In this document: in pieces, positions 1 through 33,587 of the stretch
How positions within the stretch are numbered: position 1 is the first letter of the stretch
How the letters are laid out: each line of letters begins with the position of its first letter
Virus record (IMG/VR): IMGVR_UViG_3300026980_000004
Length of the DNA: 64,000 bases
Strand: one strand, 5' to 3'
DNA from: a virus
Lineage: Duplodnaviria; Heunggongvirae; Uroviricota; Caudoviricetes
Translations under genes and position numbers: made by a program
Notes under the pieces: generated by a model
Databases searched by the model: none
What the model was told of the DNA's origin: nothing
The model's input: only the letters and a program-made list of their open reading frames with translations

Positions 1-98
1 ACAACACCAAATAAAACCAATAGCCTGTCTTTTGCTTCTTGCTTGCTTATTTCGTGTTTACAAAGTTCATCTATAATTGAGTCTATTTTCTTTTCCAT
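1..98 (-). CDS. Cassette protein, partial (MEKKIDSIIDELCKHEISKQEAKDRLLVLFGVV...)
   Basis: Hand-translated. ATG at 98 lies in the first hairpin loop, the GTT core is in frame, and the ORF runs off the window. Confidence 0.6.
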   Translation of the reverse strand, partial: MEKKIDSIIDELCKHEISKQEAKDRLLVLFGV

Positions 99-125
99 AC
101 GGCTACTGTTTTTATTTGTGGAACG

Positions 126-386
126 TTAGCAACCATGTAAGATAACAAACTCCTGCCAAGGCTGTAACTGTTTCGCAAAGTCAACCGCTTTCTTTGCCTC
201 TTTATAACTTTTGAATGGTTCTACAAAGTGAATTGCAAAATCCACATCAATTAACCATGATTCTGGGGCAGTTTCCATGCTTTCAAGTCGTTTGAATTTA
301 CGGAAAACCCAATAAACACGGTTGCTAACAACAAACATACTTAATGCCTGTTGTAGTGCGTTTTTGAACATTTTTACTATTTTCAT
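126..386 (-). CDS. Cassette hypothetical protein
   Basis: Starts in the loop of site 329..446; its stop is the TTA of the GTTA core at 125. Confidence 0.7.
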   Translation of the reverse strand: MKIVKMFKNALQQALSMFVVSNRVYWVFRKFKRLESMETAPESWLIDVDFAIHFVEPFKSYKEAKKAVDFAKQLQPWQEFVILHGC

Positions 387-458
387 AATTCTACTATTTT
401 GATTGTTAGTTACTATTTAATCAGGCACTAAGCATGTTTGCAGCCGTTATAGCCAATG

Positions 459-680
459 CTAAGAAACTACATCCTTACCAAATTTCGGTAAAGACAACAA
501 CTCGAAGCGTTTTATTAATTCTGACAAAATCATATCGGTATCGTCTAATCTTGGTGGAACGGTCATAGTAAAACTTGCACCACCTGTTGAACATAATTTA
601 CTCAATGCTGATTGAGCTTTTTCGGCTAATTTTAAATTTGGAATTGCTTCGAGTTGTTTTTGAAATTCTTCGTGTGTCAT
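459..680 (-). CDS. Cassette hypothetical protein (MTHEEFQKQL...)
   Basis: ORF track; the likely ATG at 680 lies within the cassette body. Confidence 0.7.
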   Translation of the reverse strand: MTHEEFQKQLEAIPNLKLAEKAQSALSKLCSTGGASFTMTVPPRLDDTDMILSELIKRFELLSLPKFGKDVVS

Positions 681-830
681 AATTATTGATTTAAGAAGCA
701 CTGGCTATAACAGCATATACCCAAAAGAGGGGTTTTAGTGCTGAAATGAACGTCTGTGCTTCGGTTAATATTCATTGTTAATTGATAGTTTAGTGTTTCA
801 AAATCCCCTCCTTCGGGTATATGCAAACCG

Positions 831-1037
831 TTACCCACCATTTATTTGAACAGGTAATCCATTATCAATCACAAATTCAGGGCAAATACTTTTTTTAGTA
901 TATCTGCATAATTCATTGTTCCAAACTTTCCATTTAACACGTTTCGATAATCCTAATGTTTCCACAGCTTCCTCGATTGAAGAAAAAATGGTGGGTAACA
1001 CAGGGTATAGTTCATTGCTTTGTTCTTGCTTATTCAT
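831..1037 (-). CDS. Cassette hypothetical protein
   Basis: Starts in the hairpin loop and stops at the GTTA core; the core is read in a different frame (VLPT). Confidence 0.65.
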   Translation of the reverse strand: MNKQEQSNELYPVLPTIFSSIEEAVETLGLSKRVKWKVWNNELCRYTKKSICPEFVIDNGLPVQINGG

Positions 1038-1118
1038 ACTGTATTTCTTTTAATTTAAGTTCGTTTTAATTTGATAGGGCAGTGTTTCAATCACGCAACG
1101 AAACCATACCCAAGTCCG

Positions 1119-1328
1119 TTAGCAACCATACTCATTAAGTATATCTGCTACTAACATCCTAAGTTTTTTATTAAACGTACCTATTTTGGCAAGTTGGTGT
1201 TTATCCATGAAATTATGCAATCGTTCCGCAACATCTTGTGAAGTTTCTGTAAATGTACGGTTGCTAACATCGGCTATAAAATCATTGCCTTGTTCGTGCT
1301 TATCCAAAGTTTTTGTTTCTTTACTCAT
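1119..1328 (-). CDS. Cassette hypothetical protein (MSKETKT...FIADVSNR...)
   Basis: Starts in the loop, crosses the arm and stops at the GTTA core. Confidence 0.7.
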   Translation of the reverse strand: MSKETKTLDKHEQGNDFIADVSNRTFTETSQDVAERLHNFMDKHQLAKIGTFNKKLRMLVADILNEYGC

Positions 1329-1402
1329 GTCGTTTCTATTTTGAAAGTTCAAGCGTTTTTATCGGCAACGCTTCATAGCCTTGTTCGTTATAAAACATAA
1401 AA

Positions 1403-1585
1403 TTATTTGATTAATGCTTGTAATGTTTCAATAACTTCTCTTACTTGTTCGTTATTTAATTCGCAATACGAAATTACTTTTTTACCATTAAATACATTAT
1501 ATGTGGCTATTGAAACAATACCATGTAATGTATCTATTTCCAAATTTTCTTCTCCTTGTGCGTTATTTATTACCAATTTAGCCAT
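1403..1585 (-). CDS. Cassette hypothetical protein
   Basis: ORF lies entirely within cassette body 1387-1604. Confidence 0.65.
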   Translation of the reverse strand: MAKLVINNAQGEENLEIDTLHGIVSIATYNVFNGKKVISYCELNNEQVREVIETLQALIK

Positions 1586-1714
1586 AATTTTACGATTTTA
1601 TAACAACAAATATAAAACATTTATTTCAGTTTTCCAAATTTATTGTTGTGTTTTTTATTTATATTTTGTTTTTCAATTAAACTTTTCGTTATAAACGTTT
1701 TATATTTGCAACCG

Positions 1715-1927
1715 TTACCAGCAATGCTTGTGAACCCAATAGCTTTCTTGTACCGTGCAAACAGTATCTGGTATAAATACGTGCATCACACCCTTTTGCT
1801 CTTCAAGTTGTTTATAGCTTAGGAATTTTCCGCAATGTTTGCACTTACGCCACGATTGAGAAGCACTGCTGCTAACAGCACCTATACCCAATTGGGCGGT
1901 TTCATTGTTTTTTGAAGTTTCTTCCAT
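1715..1927 (-). CDS. Cassette small Cys/His-containing (possible Zn-binding) protein
   Basis: CKHCG and HKHC motifs; arm peptide LGIGAVSSS. Confidence 0.65.
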   Translation of the reverse strand: MEETSKNNETAQLGIGAVSSSASQSWRKCKHCGKFLSYKQLEEQKGVMHVFIPDTVCTVQESYWVHKHCW

Positions 1928-1996
1928 TTTATTAAGTTTTATCTGTTATTGAAAATTTGTTCATTTAATTGCCCAACTGGGCATAGCTGCAACACG

Positions 1997-2215
1997 TTAT
2001 GCGTAATGCTGTGAAATCCTTAACCATTTTTCATCTTCATACTGCTTCTTGCCATCACAATCAATCAAATACCAACCTTGTTCATCAAAGTAAGCCTTTG
2101 TGCTGTAAGTAGCATAACTCATTTCACTATCTGGTATATCAAAGTACAAACTACGCATAACATCGGCTATACTCAACGCCTTACCTTCTGCGTTAAATAA
2201 TCCTGTCTTTTCCAT
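1997..2215 (-). CDS. Cassette hypothetical protein
   Basis: MEKTGLF...ALSIADVMRS; stop at the GTTA core. Confidence 0.7.
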   Translation of the reverse strand: MEKTGLFNAEGKALSIADVMRSLYFDIPDSEMSYATYSTKAYFDEQGWYLIDCDGKKQYEDEKWLRISQHYA

Positions 2216-2296
2216 ATCAAATTTTGTTTTTAAAATTAGCTTAGTCTTTAAAAATTCGGCACTAAGCATAGCCGTGAACCGTTATGTATAATGTTT

Positions 2297-2566
2297 TTAC
2301 CCTTCCCAATCTCTATCAATATATGAAAGTTGTTCTTTTGTTTCTTCTATTGTTTTACCAATAAAATCTTCTAATTTACAACTATGTTCTTTTTCATAAT
2401 GTTTTATCCAATCATCAACACCAAAGACAACTTTCATTCTATCGTTATATTCTTTTCTAAAGGTTTCTATGTTATCAAAACTCAAAACACTATACATAAC
2501 CTCAGATATATGTAATTTTTCATTACTCTTATCTAAGTTTTGTTCTAAATTTTTACTTTCTTCCAT
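2297..2566 (-). CDS. Cassette hypothetical protein, paralog of 6777-6965
   Basis: The two share FGVxDWIKH...FIGKxIEE...IDRDWE. Confidence 0.75.
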   Translation of the reverse strand: MEESKNLEQNLDKSNEKLHISEVMYSVLSFDNIETFRKEYNDRMKVVFGVDDWIKHYEKEHSCKLEDFIGKTIEETKEQLSYIDRDWEG

Positions 2567-2619
2567 TTTATTAAATTTTGTGTTAAAACTACATATATCT
2601 GTAACCGTTAGTGGTAATG

Positions 2620-2844
2620 CTAAAACAACAAGTCAATAGTTTCCTTATCGTAATACCTTACCGTGTTTTTACTTCCGCAATTACCACATTCATCTTCAAA
2701 AGGAATATTGCACCCTTTCATTCCACAATCTTTACACCAAGTAAAAACACTATGTATGTTCTTACCAACAAGTTTTTGTTCCCAAGCACTACCGCTAACA
2801 AAGTATAAGCGTAATGCGTTTATCCATTTAATCAAGTTTTTCAT
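2620..2844 (-). CDS. Cassette Zn-ribbon-like protein
   Basis: CKDC...CGNC motifs. Confidence 0.7.
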   Translation of the reverse strand: MKNLIKWINALRLYFVSGSAWEQKLVGKNIHSVFTWCKDCGMKGCNIPFEDECGNCGSKNTVRYYDKETIDLLF

Positions 2845-2962
2845 ATATTTTAAGTTTCATTTTTTAAATTTAACCATGTGTAAGCACTACGCTTATACTC
2901 GACCGTTGTGGTGCATTAAAACGTACGCTTCGCCACCACAACACAGTATATAGGCAATAAGC

Positions 2963-3178
2963 CTACTTATTCCAGTGCTTTTTATAGCCCTCAATAAATT
3001 CCTTATCAAATTCACTTTTCCACCCGCATTTAGGGCAATTAAATTGTTCACCATCAAATTTGGTTCTCGGCCACCTTTCACCTTTAAGTGGGTAGCTTGT
3101 TCTTGGTTTACAAAGTTCATCACCGCAATACGGGCTATAACCTTGTCTTGTCATTAAATTATCTCTTACAATACTCAT
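2963..3178 (-). CDS. Zn-ribbon-like protein encoded wholly inside a hairpin loop
   Basis: YCGDELC...CPKCG; lies between the arms at about 2943-2966 and 3198-3225. Confidence 0.75.
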   Translation of the reverse strand: MSIVRDNLMTRQGYSPYCGDELCKPRTSYPLKGERWPRTKFDGEQFNCPKCGWKSEFDKEFIEGYKKHWNK

Positions 3179-3236
3179 AGTTTCGTTCTTTTAAGTCGTA
3201 GGCTTACAGCCCATATACTCGGCACGTTAGTGTCAA

Positions 3237-3413
3237 TTATTTTGTCCAACAATGCCAACAATCATTACATACAAGTTTTGTATCATCCCAAAAGTTCGTT
3301 CTTATTTCAGATTTACCACAATTTGGACAAAATAACTGTTCGCTTCGCCCACTAACAACAGATATATTCAATTGTTTGTGTCTTTTAAATAAGTTTTTAA
3401 TAAATTTTATCAT
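3237..3413 (-). CDS. Cassette Zn-ribbon-like protein, 58 aa (not in the ORF track)
   Basis: Hand-translated MIKFIKNLFKRHKQLNISVVSGRSEQLFCPNCG...CNDCWHCWTK; shares GRSEQL with 4164-4394. Confidence 0.7.
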   Translation of the reverse strand: MIKFIKNLFKRHKQLNISVVSGRSEQLFCPNCGKSEIRTNFWDDTKLVCNDCWHCWTK

Positions 3414-3475
3414 TTGTATTTCAATTTAAGTTTGTATTCAACTGAATATATCTGCAACCGTTGTAGCACATACGC

Positions 3476-3685
3476 TCAATCTGTCCGTTCAAACAAAGGA
3501 ATGTAATGCGTGACCCACCCGTCTTTCAAACCAAATTTCACAGTCGAGCCTTGTTCCCATTGCCACCATTTTTTACCATCAAACCAAGCCTGCCCATCTT
3601 CATCAGTACCAGCAGGTGTTTTAGCCTTGCACTGAGTATTTGGTTTAGGTGGGTTTGAGCTTTCAATCCAATTTTCGTTATTCAT
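3476..3685 (-). CDS. Cassette protein, DUF551-like
   Basis: WIES..PP N-terminus and VTHYIPL C-terminus. Confidence 0.55.
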   Translation of the reverse strand: MNNENWIESSNPPKPNTQCKAKTPAGTDEDGQAWFDGKKWWQWEQGSTVKFGLKDGWVTHYIPLFERTD

Positions 3686-3794
3686 TTTCGTTCGCTTTAC
3701 GATGCTACAACAATGGGTATAGTGAATAGCCCATTGAAGGCATCAGGTTAATATTAAATTTTGTGGGTAGGGCTACTCACCATACCCGAAACCG

Positions 3795-4016
3795 TTATCC
3801 ACCATTTGACAACAACTTCTCATGGTCATTAATCGACCTTTGAAGAAATGCCATTTGGCTACTAACTTTTGCTTGAATATTGTAAACTGCACCCGAATCA
3901 AAGTTTAGTTGCTCATTATAATCTTTGAAGGTTTGCCAAAATTCTTCAAGTTCCATTAACTCTTCTTTTCTCTGCCCAATGTGCTTTTTGATATTTATGT
4001 CTTTCAAATCAATCAT
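3795..4016 (-). CDS. Cassette hypothetical protein (MIDLKD...)
   Basis: ORF track; likely ATG in the body; stop at the GTTA core. Confidence 0.65.
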   Translation of the reverse strand: MIDLKDINIKKHIGQRKEELMELEEFWQTFKDYNEQLNFDSGAVYNIQAKVSSQMAFLQRSINDHEKLLSNGG

Positions 4017-4163
4017 AATAAAAACGGTGGCTAACAAAGTATATAGCACATAGCCTGTCAGCCATTTTTGAAACTATGTGCGGTTGTTAAATTATCTTCT
4101 CTTTTTTTTTAGGTCTGTGAGTGGCTACGTGCCATATACAAACCGTTGTAGGCAATTAGTTTG

Positions 4164-4394
4164 CTACTCTTCTACGTTTCTATCACACTGTAAGCATTGC
4201 CCGAAGTATATTTCTTTGTCAGTTAATTTGTTGCCACATTCGCAAACTAACTGTTCGCTTCGCCCTACAACATCGTGTATGCGTAAGGCTTGAAGTATCT
4301 TTTTAGCCTCAAACACTCTTCCTCTTTGAAAATCCGTTTGAGGGTACTTAAAATACTCAATCGTGTGTTCAAGTTGTCTTATTATTTCTTCCAT
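4164..4394 (-). CDS. Cassette protein with C-terminal Zn ribbon
   Basis: ALRIHDVVGRSEQLVCECG...CLQC. Confidence 0.7.
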   Translation of the reverse strand: MEEIIRQLEHTIEYFKYPQTDFQRGRVFEAKKILQALRIHDVVGRSEQLVCECGNKLTDKEIYFGQCLQCDRNVEE

Positions 4395-4445
4395 TGTATC
4401 AGAGTTTTTTTGTTAATAAATCACCCTACGCATACACGAGGAACG

Positions 4446-4745
4446 TTAGCCGTAATTTTGAAGAAGCTCCCGTAAAGCATCCTTATTACTTACAGCTATA
4501 TCATTTCTTTGCTCCCCATCTAAAAACCAAGTCCAAAATTCAGTAGCATTTATCGTTATCCTACCTTTTTTGTAATAGTATTGTGCAGGTCGCATACTAC
4601 TAATACTTATATATCCAGTACCTAACATCAACCGCTTTTCAAATCCAAGTTCAACCAAGTCCTCTTCGGATAAAAAACTACGGCTAACAACAGGTATATT
4701 TAATGCCTGTGTTTCTGCGTTATTTAAGTTCTGTTCTTTTTTCAT
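4446..4745 (-). CDS. Cassette hypothetical protein
   Basis: MKKEQNL...ALNIPVVSRS; stop at the GTTA core. Confidence 0.7.
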   Translation of the reverse strand: MKKEQNLNNAETQALNIPVVSRSFLSEEDLVELGFEKRLMLGTGYISISSMRPAQYYYKKGRITINATEFWTWFLDGEQRNDIAVSNKDALRELLQNYG

Positions 4746-4856
4746 CGTTATCTCTATTTTTAAAGTTATTGCTATTAAATCAGGCACTAAACATACCCAA
4801 ACCGTTGTAGCACATTAAAACGATGCTACAACAATGTATATAACACATACACTCGC

Positions 4857-5057
4857 TTATGTAGGCTCTTTTAATTCCGCCCAATGTGTTGGCAATAAAC
4901 TCAGTCGATAGTCTCTTGTCGGTACTACTGCAAAAGTTCCGTCCGTCCATTTAATCACACCAATATCCCAAACGTTAAAGTGTTTATTCCATCTCGCACC
5001 GAGTATTCGTGTTCCATCTTTGGGCGGGGTTTGTTCTTTAATTGAAATCCATTCCAT
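4857..5057 (-). CDS. DUF551-like protein encoded wholly inside a hairpin loop
   Basis: MEWISIKEQTPP...THWAEL pattern; lies between AAC 4832 and GTT 5112. Confidence 0.7.
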   Translation of the reverse strand: MEWISIKEQTPPKDGTRILGARWNKHFNVWDIGVIKWTDGTFAVVPTRDYRLSLLPTHWAELKEPT

Positions 5058-5112
5058 TTTATTAAATTTTAGTTGTTAAAATCGCTCGTTTTACGTGTCA
5101 TATACTTTGCCG

Positions 5113-5412
5113 TTAGGCAACATTAGCTTCGTACTTTAAATACGAGGGCTTTATATCGTAATTTTTACCTTTGTATTCTACATTTACATATCTACCTTCA
5201 AAGTTCGCCCAGCAGTAATTAACCTTTACTATTGTGTTAACTGGTATTGATTCTTTAGGGTTCTTTTCAAAATAGTGTATATCTGCCATACAAACAGCCC
5301 TCTCAGTTACTACTAACTTGTTTCCTTTTTCGCATACATATAGTCCGTTTTGTATTTCAATTGCTGTTTTATTTTCGTAGTGGTGTCCAAGCAATTTAAT
5401 TTGTTCAATCAT
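5113..5412 (-). CDS. Cassette hypothetical protein
   Basis: ORF track; ATG in the body; stop at the GTTA core. Confidence 0.65.
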   Translation of the reverse strand: MIEQIKLLGHHYENKTAIEIQNGLYVCEKGNKLVVTERAVCMADIHYFEKNPKESIPVNTIVKVNYCWANFEGRYVNVEYKGKNYDIKPSYLKYEANVA

Positions 5413-5557
5413 AATAACGTTGCCTAACAAAGTATAAAAACAAAAGCTATTATTAGGCTGTTTATAAGGCTTTTGCTTGTTAATTAATATAGTTTCTTTA
5501 CTCTAAGTTTTTGCGTACTTACACGCTTCAATTTTTATACAAACCGTTAAGGCGAAT

Positions 5558-5755
5558 TTAATACTCGCCCATTTGTCCCCTCATTTTTTCTTCAAAACAG
5601 TCGTTACATTCGTAGCAACCTTCAAAATTCCAATTCTCATCATACATTTTGTGTTTTTCACCTGTTTTTTCTTCACCACAAACATCGCATAAAAAACTCG
5701 CCTTAACACTATGTATAGTGCATGGCTGCTCGGTTTTTGAATGTTTTGTACTCAT
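5558..5755 (-). CDS. Cassette Zn-ribbon-like protein
   Basis: CDVC...CNDC motifs. Confidence 0.7.
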   Translation of the reverse strand: MSTKHSKTEQPCTIHSVKASFLCDVCGEEKTGEKHKMYDENWNFEGCYECNDCFEEKMRGQMGEY

Positions 5756-5827
5756 ATTTAATTTTATTTAAGTTTTGGAACTATGTGGCTTTGTTCGGAG
5801 GCAGCCACGTCACCATACATTTTAACG

Positions 5828-6148
5828 TTACCCAACATTTAAGTTAGGCAACTTTGATTCTATGTGAAATTTCGGACTAATCTGCTTCCCTCTCTGCTCA
5901 AGCCAACTGTAACAATCCAATCCTACTTGTTGCCTTATCAATCGAATACCACGCCATCGCAGCTTACCTTTGGTTATTTCGCCTTTGATAGGGGGTTCTG
6001 CCATAGTTCGTAAAGCAGTTGTAAATAGTTCTTCTTCCAGCCTGCGAACTTCATCAAATAAACGTTGGGTAACATTGGCTATATTTAATGCCAAGTCCTC
6101 GTCAACTTGAAAGTTCGGGTGTTCAATTCTTTTTAGTTCATATTTCAT
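5828..6148 (-). CDS. Cassette hypothetical protein
   Basis: Arm peptide ALNIANVTQR; stop at the GTTA core. Confidence 0.7.
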   Translation of the reverse strand: MKYELKRIEHPNFQVDEDLALNIANVTQRLFDEVRRLEEELFTTALRTMAEPPIKGEITKGKLRWRGIRLIRQQVGLDCYSWLEQRGKQISPKFHIESKLPNLNVG

Positions 6149-6190
6149 AATTATCGTTTTTTAAGTTGGCACTAAACATAGCCGTAGCCG

Positions 6191-6400
6191 TTATACGCAA
6201 TGCTTTGAAACATATCGGTCAGCGTGTTTTTCAAGTTTATCACTATTGTAATGTGAACCTAATGATTCGCCATCTAAAGCTGCTTGTAGTTGGTCGATAA
6301 CACGCTGTTCATAACCTGCCTTATAAGCATTGCGTATAACATCGGCTATATTCAATGCCGATTTTTCAACCTCATTCAAGTTTTCGTTTTCTTTACTCAT
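6191..6400 (-). CDS. Cassette hypothetical protein
   Basis: Arm peptide ALNIADVIRN; stop at the GTTA core. Confidence 0.7.
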   Translation of the reverse strand: MSKENENLNEVEKSALNIADVIRNAYKAGYEQRVIDQLQAALDGESLGSHYNSDKLEKHADRYVSKHCV

Positions 6401-6466
6401 TCTATCTGTTATTTAAAGTTTTTACTATTTAATACGCCACTAAATATAGCCGAGAGCCGTTGTAAA

Positions 6467-6715
6467 TCATTTGCCATCAAAAGTTTGGTTGCATTTTTGG
6501 CAGATGTCTAAATCCGAAGTGAACATTATTAGTTTACAGTCTTTACCATTAGGGCAAACGTCACTATCGTTATTTACAACATTGGCTATAAATAATGCTT
6601 TATCAGCAATAGCCTTTAACCTTTTTATTCTTTGCATCTTCGTTTCAGATGTAGGCTTTATTCCATATTTAGATATTTTCTCTAAAGCCTTTTTGTATGT
6701 TTCTAATTCAGTCAT
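6467..6715 (-). CDS. Cassette protein with C-terminal Cys cluster
   Basis: ALFIANVVNN...CPNGKDC...CQKC. Confidence 0.7.
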   Translation of the reverse strand: MTELETYKKALEKISKYGIKPTSETKMQRIKRLKAIADKALFIANVVNNDSDVCPNGKDCKLIMFTSDLDICQKCNQTFDGK

Positions 6716-6776
6716 TGTATTAAGTTTTGTATATATTAAGTCGCACTATTCATAGCCTTTACCGTTATGGGTAATA

Positions 6777-6965
6777 TTATTCCTCCCAATCCCTGTCTAT
6801 GTGTGAAATTACTTTTTCAACTTCTTCAATATCTTTTCCTATGAAGTCAGTTAAATTATATTTAGAATGTTTTATCCAATCATTCACACCAAAAAGTAAT
6901 TTCATTTTACAGTTGAATCTGTTTTTAAATTCTTCTAAATTATCTAATGTTAAAATACTACCCAT
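6777..6965 (-). CDS. Terminal cassette protein, paralog of 2297-2566
   Basis: The likely start is the ATG in GTTATGGGT. The longer ORF-track N-terminus overlaps another ORF. Confidence 0.6.
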   Translation of the reverse strand: MGSILTLDNLEEFKNRFNCKMKLLFGVNDWIKHSKYNLTDFIGKDIEEVEKVISHIDRDWEE

Positions 6966-6988
6966 AACAACAAATATATGTAATAAAA

Positions 6989-7117
6989 TTAAAATATCAA
7001 ATACCCAATCAAAATCCCAAAAAGAATTAATCCAATACCAATGGAAATAATAACCACACATCCATAATTCTTTTTGGGTGTTCCGTCTAAATTATAATCT
7101 TCTATTCCATCAAACAT
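6989..7117 (-). CDS. Small membrane protein, 42 aa (MFDGIEDYNLDGTPKKNYGCVVIISIGIGLILFGILIGYLIF)
   Basis: Hand-translated; one hydrophobic segment; abuts the array boundary. Confidence 0.55.
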   Translation of the reverse strand: MFDGIEDYNLDGTPKKNYGCVVIISIGIGLILFGILIGYLIF

Positions 7118-33512: not shown

Positions 33513-33587
33513 TGGGTGCGGAGTGATTCGAACACTCGACCTTTGTCTTATGAGGACACCGCTACCAACCAACTGAGCTACGCACCC
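33513..33587 (-). tRNA. tRNA with CAT anticodon (Ile2 or elongator Met)
   Basis: GGGTGCG/CGCACCC acceptor stem, TAGCTCAGTTGG D-arm, CTCATAA anticodon loop, GTTCGAATC T-loop. The G1-C72 pair argues against an initiator tRNA. No encoded CCA. Confidence 0.9.

Follow-up and report, generated by a model that had tools for sequence, protein, structure and literature searches.

Which way do the cassettes of a hairpin array run, and what becomes of a gene that starts inside its own recombination site? This question is raised by the 64,000-nt stretch analyzed here (the window; IMG/VR record IMGVR_UViG_3300026980_000004), which begins with 22 hairpin sites between positions 3 and 6766 and a row of small minus-strand genes, many of which start in a hairpin loop and are read through the hairpin arm. 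On the plus strand, each site has the layout AAC, 2 nt, arm, loop, arm, 5 nt, GTT. The initial annotation had left two explanations side by side: either the genes are inverted and start in their own attC-like site, or recombination at the core GTT swaps N-terminal leaders in frame. Both hold, at different rates. The analysis points, with a probability of about 0.8, to a phage-encoded integron-like gene-capture system with inverted cassettes, in which the hairpin serves as the head of the gene and is occasionally re-joined in frame. No sites were called on the opposite strand of the window array, and shuffled DNA gave 0-1 sites per 8.5 kb and no validated cassettes.

The window, which begins near the origin, forms the edge of a Bacteroidota-type phage genome, a complete circular virus record of 265,845 nt (266 kb). 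The array runs through the origin and beyond the window, with five further sites at C1 264084-265526, followed by an attI-like half-site and a tyrosine recombinase gene. The recombinase (267 aa, minus strand, C1 262963-263766, L001:1468-2271) lies outside the window, adjoins the array, and matches PF00589 and PF13495. The IntI-specific extra (I2) domain, described as a feature of integron integrases (PMC9024848), is missing, with 38 residues between the aligned blocks versus 86 in IntI4, and the TIGR02249 score of 157.6 bits is below the cut-off of 265. The crossover G of the half-site is at C1 263819 (L001:2324), 53 nt upstream of the recombinase start codon. Relatives numbered 140 in one viral scan and 429 in metagenomes. 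A half-site ending with G^TT is kept in 123 of 128 integrase loci, at a median of 46 nt from the recombinase start, and the DNA after its GTT is variable (100 different 14-mers). The cultured Polaribacter phage Freya_10 (L245 3791-4962) carries the recombinase, the half-site, and a read-through first cassette. The Freya isolates vary in length upstream of the recombinase, which may partly reflect record starts or packaging.

Comparison of homologous cassettes clarified where the units begin and end. The cassette at 2607-2907 was recovered whole, its own hairpin included, as the first cassette after the half-site in another locus (L030). In differing neighborhoods, homologous cassettes have in common the body and the hairpin at the 5' end of the gene, and the break is exactly at the plus-strand G^TT. 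The hairpin past the stop codon differs in every comparison. Among 16 pairs with a body identity of at least 0.75, the start-side hairpin reaches at least 0.72 in 12; for the stop-side hairpin, measurable in 11, the identity does not rise above background (0.35-0.60). The minus strand gives the more stable fold at 26 of the 27 sites of this array and at 536 of 579 overall, and the excess of G:T wobbles (187 vs 17) is on the same strand. In attC, it is the recombined bottom strand that folds more stably and carries G:T wobbles (PMC5027507). In Aquimarina, Tenacibaculum, Croceitalea, and Hyunsoonleella, sites of the same geometry are located after forward genes. Because the half-site with its variable DNA, the G^TT breakpoints, the fold stability of the minus strand, and the bacterial arrays agree, the cassette polarity is read as the plus strand. 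With this polarity the phage genes are inverted, and start, arm, and stop all belong to one cassette. The longest open reading frame runs against the polarity in 384 of 400 non-redundant phage cassettes (96%) and in all window cassettes. The polarity itself is uniform; inverted cassettes are at most 7 of 742 and mostly low-score AT-rich calls. The genes may be inverted because they follow the minus-strand transcription of the phage, which would run through the array into the recombinase.

The same observations bear on the opposite explanation, in which classical minus-strand cassettes cross over at the Val codon and each gene routinely takes its leader from the upstream cassette. Such shuffling would account for the same-frame convention across genes, for a single leader family on many unrelated bodies, and for the six swaps at the Val GTT described below. 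At 26 of 27 sites, the 7 nt following G^TT agree in 5-7 positions with the 7 nt preceding the next AAC, the pattern of a circular cassette; this complementarity fits either polarity and was hence not used as a polarity test. However, the half-site and the variable first cassette set the plus polarity, the folding asymmetry and the bacterial arrays indicate the same, and it is the start-side hairpin that is mostly kept in homologous cassettes, never the stop-side one. Routine leader shuffling is largely refuted and is considered highly improbable.

Reading through the hairpin was confirmed as first described. At exactly 14 of the 22 sites, the frame of a loop ATG is open through the arm, reads the reverse complement of the left AAC as GTT (Val), and continues for at least 35 codons. 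The other sites comprise one Leu-frame read-through, five genes with a start in the body, and two genes wholly in the loop. The nine recurrent leader peptides named in the initial annotation are all present, and the ten open reading frames said to take their stop from the far core all do so; only seven of these ten are Val-frame genes. The frame bias, for which a comparison with one in three in a larger set had been proposed, is 124:26:10 in the 400 non-redundant phage cassettes (p = 3e-30), and it persists when non-coding bacterial arms supply the null (0.38; p = 1e-24). Of the 124 read-through genes, 104 stop no more than 21 nt from the cassette border, a non-random pattern, and the genes therefore fill their cassettes. 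The core stop codon was rejected as a special signal, as it is used by only 39 of the 124 (31%), not above one in three.

The loop ATGs have the character of real start codons. An A at -3 is found in 142 of 190 loop ATGs (75%) versus 198 of 539 out-of-frame loop ATGs (37%; p = 1e-19), and an A at -11 to -13 in about 80% of loop ATGs. The A at -3 is a positive start determinant in Flavobacterium (PMC6847099). The predicted messenger RNA fold leaves the start region largely unpaired with the arms paired, and the ratio of nonsynonymous to synonymous polymorphism (pN/pS) in leaders is 0.52 over 38 pairs (p = 5e-4). The family of gene 6148-5828 is informative in this respect. Its homologues mostly hold a 25-residue leader and a length of 106 aa, with two strongly divergent leader subtypes, and the start and the length are constant over dozens of diverged leaders. 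The first 23 residues of the body include no Met. In a structure model of moderate confidence (predicted local distance difference test score, pLDDT, 71; predicted template modeling score, pTM, 0.46), the arm-coded residues are predicted to open a long helix at residues 17-49; the model has no match in PDB. It is scarcely probable, given this start signature, the leader pN/pS, the constancy of the family, and the modeled helix, that the read-through is a gene-calling artefact, with arms open by chance and true starts downstream of the core. An artefact would be in keeping with the open Val frame in many non-coding bacterial arms (23 of 36) and with certain plain-gene homologues of the 4745-4446 body, whose start is that of the body, yet a Val-frame read-through is present at only 1 of 36 bacterial sites. 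Translation of the leaders from loop ATGs thus appears well supported at the sequence level.

Two side observations concern other hairpin types. One type contains a Bacteroidota -7-like box on the gene strand in its arms, for example at window positions 1614 and 6978. The box occurs at 46 of 585 sites without read-through and at 3 of 300 with it, and certain sites may supply a promoter rather than a start codon. An arm promoter was rejected as a general rule, with the box at just these 46 of 585 sites and no fixed -33 spacing. In the second type (L248 and P0135), which was missed by the site finder, the core is read in the Leu frame by the leader, and the far end begins with TAGC, not TAAC.

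Whether leader and body stay linked, or part exactly at the Val codon, had been proposed as the check between the two explanations, and the outcome is divided. For the body of 6148-5828, 250 homologues were found and 119 examined: the leader belongs to the same family in 92 and to another in 17, and 10 were too short to call. All homologues of 2566-2297 with a full N-terminus keep their leader type. Leader and body thus usually stay together. Swaps were judged by eye on the DNA, as automatic leader clustering merged unrelated leaders. Six bodies, one of them from the window, each occur under two unrelated hairpins, joined at most 2 nt from the Val GTT. The window body, 4745-4446, carries in L257 a hairpin of the family of site 5705-5829; both arms are changed and the identity stops one base before the GTT. 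The other five have 1-2 nt in common before the GTT, and the first body bases in common. The breakpoint is not always exactly at Val. In L249, L250, and L236 compared with L007, 10-15 nt of the arm are retained, and in L248 and L268 the first body bases are altered. The leader family of gene 1927-1715 is also found on the body family of 6148-5828 (P0119, L248, and L268). The junction zone of the swaps extends about 15 nt to either side of the core.

Heads also recur on other bodies. The hairpin of site 4686-4806 is on a different body in Cellulophaga phage phi19:3 (gp033), and the leader family of site 5705-5829 is shared by seven or more unrelated bodies. The GRSEQ class, to which two window genes belong, includes 103 copies, 99 with an in-frame leader, and shows the same tails with differing leaders as well as the same leaders with differing tails; the 41-aa leader of gene 4394-4164 is on 11 other, different tails. 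The GRSEQ swaps have 22 nt in common, too long to place the crossover, and an Arg/Gln polymorphism within the class offers few pairs for linkage to leader or tail. The 4745-4446 body also has eight homologues that are plain genes, with their own Met at the body start; one of them (L259) has no hairpin, though its record includes only 40 nt upstream. The viral-contig scan gave nothing for this body. The plain homologues fit a course in which an ordinary gene was captured and placed behind a hairpin head, with cassette decay as the other possible direction. Four homologues of 6148-5828 (L264 and L273-L275) with a recognizable leader peptide and no hairpin are probably cassettes decayed or fixed as ordinary genes.

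In-frame leader swapping therefore did not stand as a routine reaction but stood as an occasional event, seen in the six bodies and in the GRSEQ reassortment. Inverted genes starting in their own site are the routine behavior, as indicated by the half-site, the G^TT breakpoints, the change of neighbor on the stop side, and the hairpin kept on the start side.

The hairpins could instead be hot spots of general phage mosaicism through annealing proteins and slippage at short repeats, with the recombinase an idle neighbor and every swap a matter of short homology. This is quite improbable, because the half-site is fixed at about 46 nt from the start codon in nearly all loci, the G^TT borders are sharp to a single base between cassettes without other homology, and the cassette polarity is uniform. 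The 22 nt in common in the GRSEQ swaps, the enzyme without the I2 insert, and the many arrays without a nearby integrase (such as the second array of this genome and that of Polaribacter phage P12002L) would fit mosaicism, as would P12002L_attC1, the one tested site of this geometry, which was not recombined by IntI1 (PMC9892861).

Several points weigh against an integron-like system with occasional re-joining. The leader pN/pS indicates mild selection only. The swaps that retain 10-15 nt of arm or change the first body bases fit homologous exchange better than a fixed cut. Top-strand activity would be expected to leave inverted cassettes, yet these are near-absent; such cassettes would be silent and could have been lost. 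The loci are metagenomic and partly related, so that the pair counts are not independent.

In the proposed integron-like mechanism, the recombinase probably acts on the hairpin sites. The short enzyme would put circular cassettes into the half-site next to its own gene and would cut folded hairpins on their minus (bottom) strand, at the position of the plus-strand G^TT. The cassette unit is G^TT, body, AAC, arm, loop, arm, and G. With genes running against the polarity, toward the recombinase and along phage transcription, the hairpin lies at the 5' end of its gene and would be used as the gene head: the loop would provide 10-40 codons along with the ribosome start, about seven more, the last of them Val, would come from the arm and core, and the body would supply the remainder. 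Less often, a whole hairpin is re-joined to another body at or a few bases from the left core, and because nearly all genes read the left core in the same frame, the product is an in-frame chimera. Top-strand recombination has about even odds of being the route of the swaps, and short-homology deletion or annealing somewhat less than an even chance. Top-strand recombination cuts at the left-core AAC and is favored by loss of extrahelical bases (PMC5027507). An AA^C to AA^C event between neighbors would join one body in frame to the next hairpin, and deletion or annealing over the short common core and arm would give the same product. A further reading, tentative and on balance doubtful, is that the hairpin is a two-way site, whose bottom strand moves cassettes and whose top strand, less well excluded because the extrahelical bases are missing, swaps N-termini at Val. 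It would then be a selected chimera generator in which a ready-made head and a captured gene amount to the birth of a cassette.

The system resembles integrons (IntI1, VchIntIA PDB 2A3V) in the tyrosine recombinase beside a non-palindromic half-site, the array of small cassettes with G^TT and AAC cores moving as units, the variable-loop hairpins, and the more stable, G:T-wobble-bearing bottom strand. It differs in the missing I2 insert, in an internal loop of 2 vs 5 nt, and in the absence of a fixed extrahelical base near L'' on the left arm (23 scattered bulges in 348), the asymmetry being in the internal loop instead. The genes are not oriented toward their site from a Pc promoter at attI but are inverted in 96% of phage cassettes, and the site holds a start codon and N-terminus in about one-third of phage cassettes and two-thirds in this array. 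Thus, the system would be integron-like in its working and is not classed as a classical integron, because it departs in three defining features, the I2 insert, the extrahelical bases, and the gene orientation.

Phage-borne integrons and clusters of attC sites lacking integrases (CALINs), including P12002L, were described as classical attC without an integrase, in 'divergent directions' (Qi et al. 2023, PMC9892861), and P12002L_attC1 was the sole site of six not recombined by IntI1. This site has the geometry of the window sites, and P12002L has eight or more others, whose genes run against the polarity and include two read-through genes (gp37 and gp60). The failure of IntI1 fits a family of sites served by a dedicated enzyme. 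The short recombinase, the half-site, the inverted genes, and the coding hairpins are absent from that description. Short open reading frames in attI1 (ORF-11, -17, and -18) and within attC aid translation of the next cassette (PMC8876359), and in them, too, the recombination site supplies a start from which translation proceeds across the core. They are separate coupling peptides, whereas the site-coded peptide here would be the N-terminus of the protein of the same cassette. Chromosomal arrays of Flavobacteriaceae (Aquimarina L111, Tenacibaculum L132, and Croceitalea L127) have the same site geometry and a related short recombinase (42-52% identity); unlike in the phage, the array is downstream of the recombinase, the genes are forward and large, and the sites are non-coding.

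The features of the window array are listed in Table 1. No Rfam covariance model (e.g., Flavo-1) matches the hairpins, and Pfam and PHROG gave no convincing family for the cassette bodies. The nearly bodiless cassettes at 2905-3228 and 4804-5114 would form a dumbbell-shaped circle with cargo possible in either loop, and the 38-nt body of the former resembles the start of GRSEQ-class bodies.

Table 1. Cassettes and hairpin sites of the window array.
Feature	Position	Strand	Site and gene
Integron-like array, distal part	1-6990	+	Cassette polarity plus, every gene minus
Site	3-127	+	Loop ATG at 98 (minus), Val-frame gene 92 aa, body beyond window start
Cassette	126-448	-	Site 327-448; Val-frame gene 386-126, core stop
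Cassette	446-832	-	Site 709-832; gene 680-459 with body start, no read-through
Cassette	830-1120	-	Site 997-1120; gene 1037-831, Leu-frame read-through, core stop
Cassette	1118-1389	-	Site 1266-1389; Val-frame gene 1328-1119, core stop
Cassette	1387-1716	-	Site 1602-1716; gene 1585-1403 with body start; Bacteroidota -7-like box in arm at 1614
Cassette	1714-1998	-	Site 1874-1998; Val-frame gene 1927-1715, core stop
Cassette	1996-2283	-	Site 2159-2283; Val-frame gene (ATG 2215 or 2269) to 1997, core stop
Cassette	2281-2609	-	Site 2498-2609; Val-frame gene 2566-2297
Cassette	2607-2907	-	Site 2797-2907; Val-frame gene 2844-2620
Cassette, 38-nt body	2905-3228	-	Site 2940-3228; gene 3178-2963 entirely in loop
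Cassette	3226-3462	-	Site 3354-3462; Val-frame gene 3413-3237, GRSEQ class
Cassette	3460-3796	-	Site 3709-3796; gene 3685-3476 with body start
Cassette	3794-4147	-	Site 4033-4147; gene 4016-3795 with body start, core stop
Cassette	4145-4447	-	Site 4269-4447; Val-frame gene 4394-4164, GRSEQ class
Cassette	4445-4806	-	Site 4686-4806; Val-frame gene 4745-4446, core stop
Cassette, 29-nt body	4804-5114	-	Site 4830-5114; gene 5057-4857 entirely in loop
Cassette	5112-5548	-	Site 5426-5548; gene 5412-5113 with body start, core stop
Cassette	5546-5829	-	Site 5705-5829; Val-frame gene 5755-5558
Cassette	5827-6192	-	Site 6071-6192; Val-frame gene 6148-5828, core stop
Cassette	6190-6461	-	Site 6338-6461; Val-frame gene 6400-6191, core stop
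Cassette	6459-6766	-	Site 6578-6766; Val-frame gene 6715-6467
Decayed last cassette, family D3	6764-6990	-	Paralogue of 2297-2566 body; retains the left arm (AAC near 6967) without the loop or the right arm

The host of the phage is probably a member of Bacteroidota, because Shine-Dalgarno-like motifs are found in only 5 of 139 long open reading frames, the bacterial relatives of the recombinase are from Bacteroidota, and the hairpins match those of Cellulophaga, Tenacibaculum, and Nonlabens phages. A second array of 4-5 cassettes with its own half-site is located on the opposite strand, outside the window (G000 C1 about 193,800-195,230). At the expected recombinase start, only nine codons resemble the N-terminus of the L022 and L026 recombinases, and the gene appears to have been deleted. 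The first hairpin of this array resembles window site 4033-4147. A TnpB-like gene (392 aa) and a resolvase-like gene (188 aa), which together look like an IS607-like pair, are 1.2 kb past the recombinase (G000 C1 about 260,050-261,800). A tRNA gene is at window 33513-33587 on the minus strand.

Integron cassettes are generally regarded as units of a gene followed by its site, which are moved by an enzyme that has a special insert, and the origin of new integron cassettes is an open question. No description of an inverted-cassette, coding-hairpin system was found in the literature, in a search largely without subscription papers. Parts of the system are carried by cultured phages: the recombinase, half-site, and read-through gene by Freya_10, and read-through cassettes by phi19:3 and P12002L. 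The array described here would represent a widespread phage system without the I2 insert, in which the genes are flipped and the recombination site has been turned into a protein head. The swapped pairs and the plain-gene homologues of bodies suggest a specific path by which cassettes could be born and new small phage proteins could arise. If the hairpin is indeed a two-way site, the joining of a hairpin head to a captured gene would be a way in which new cassettes are born.

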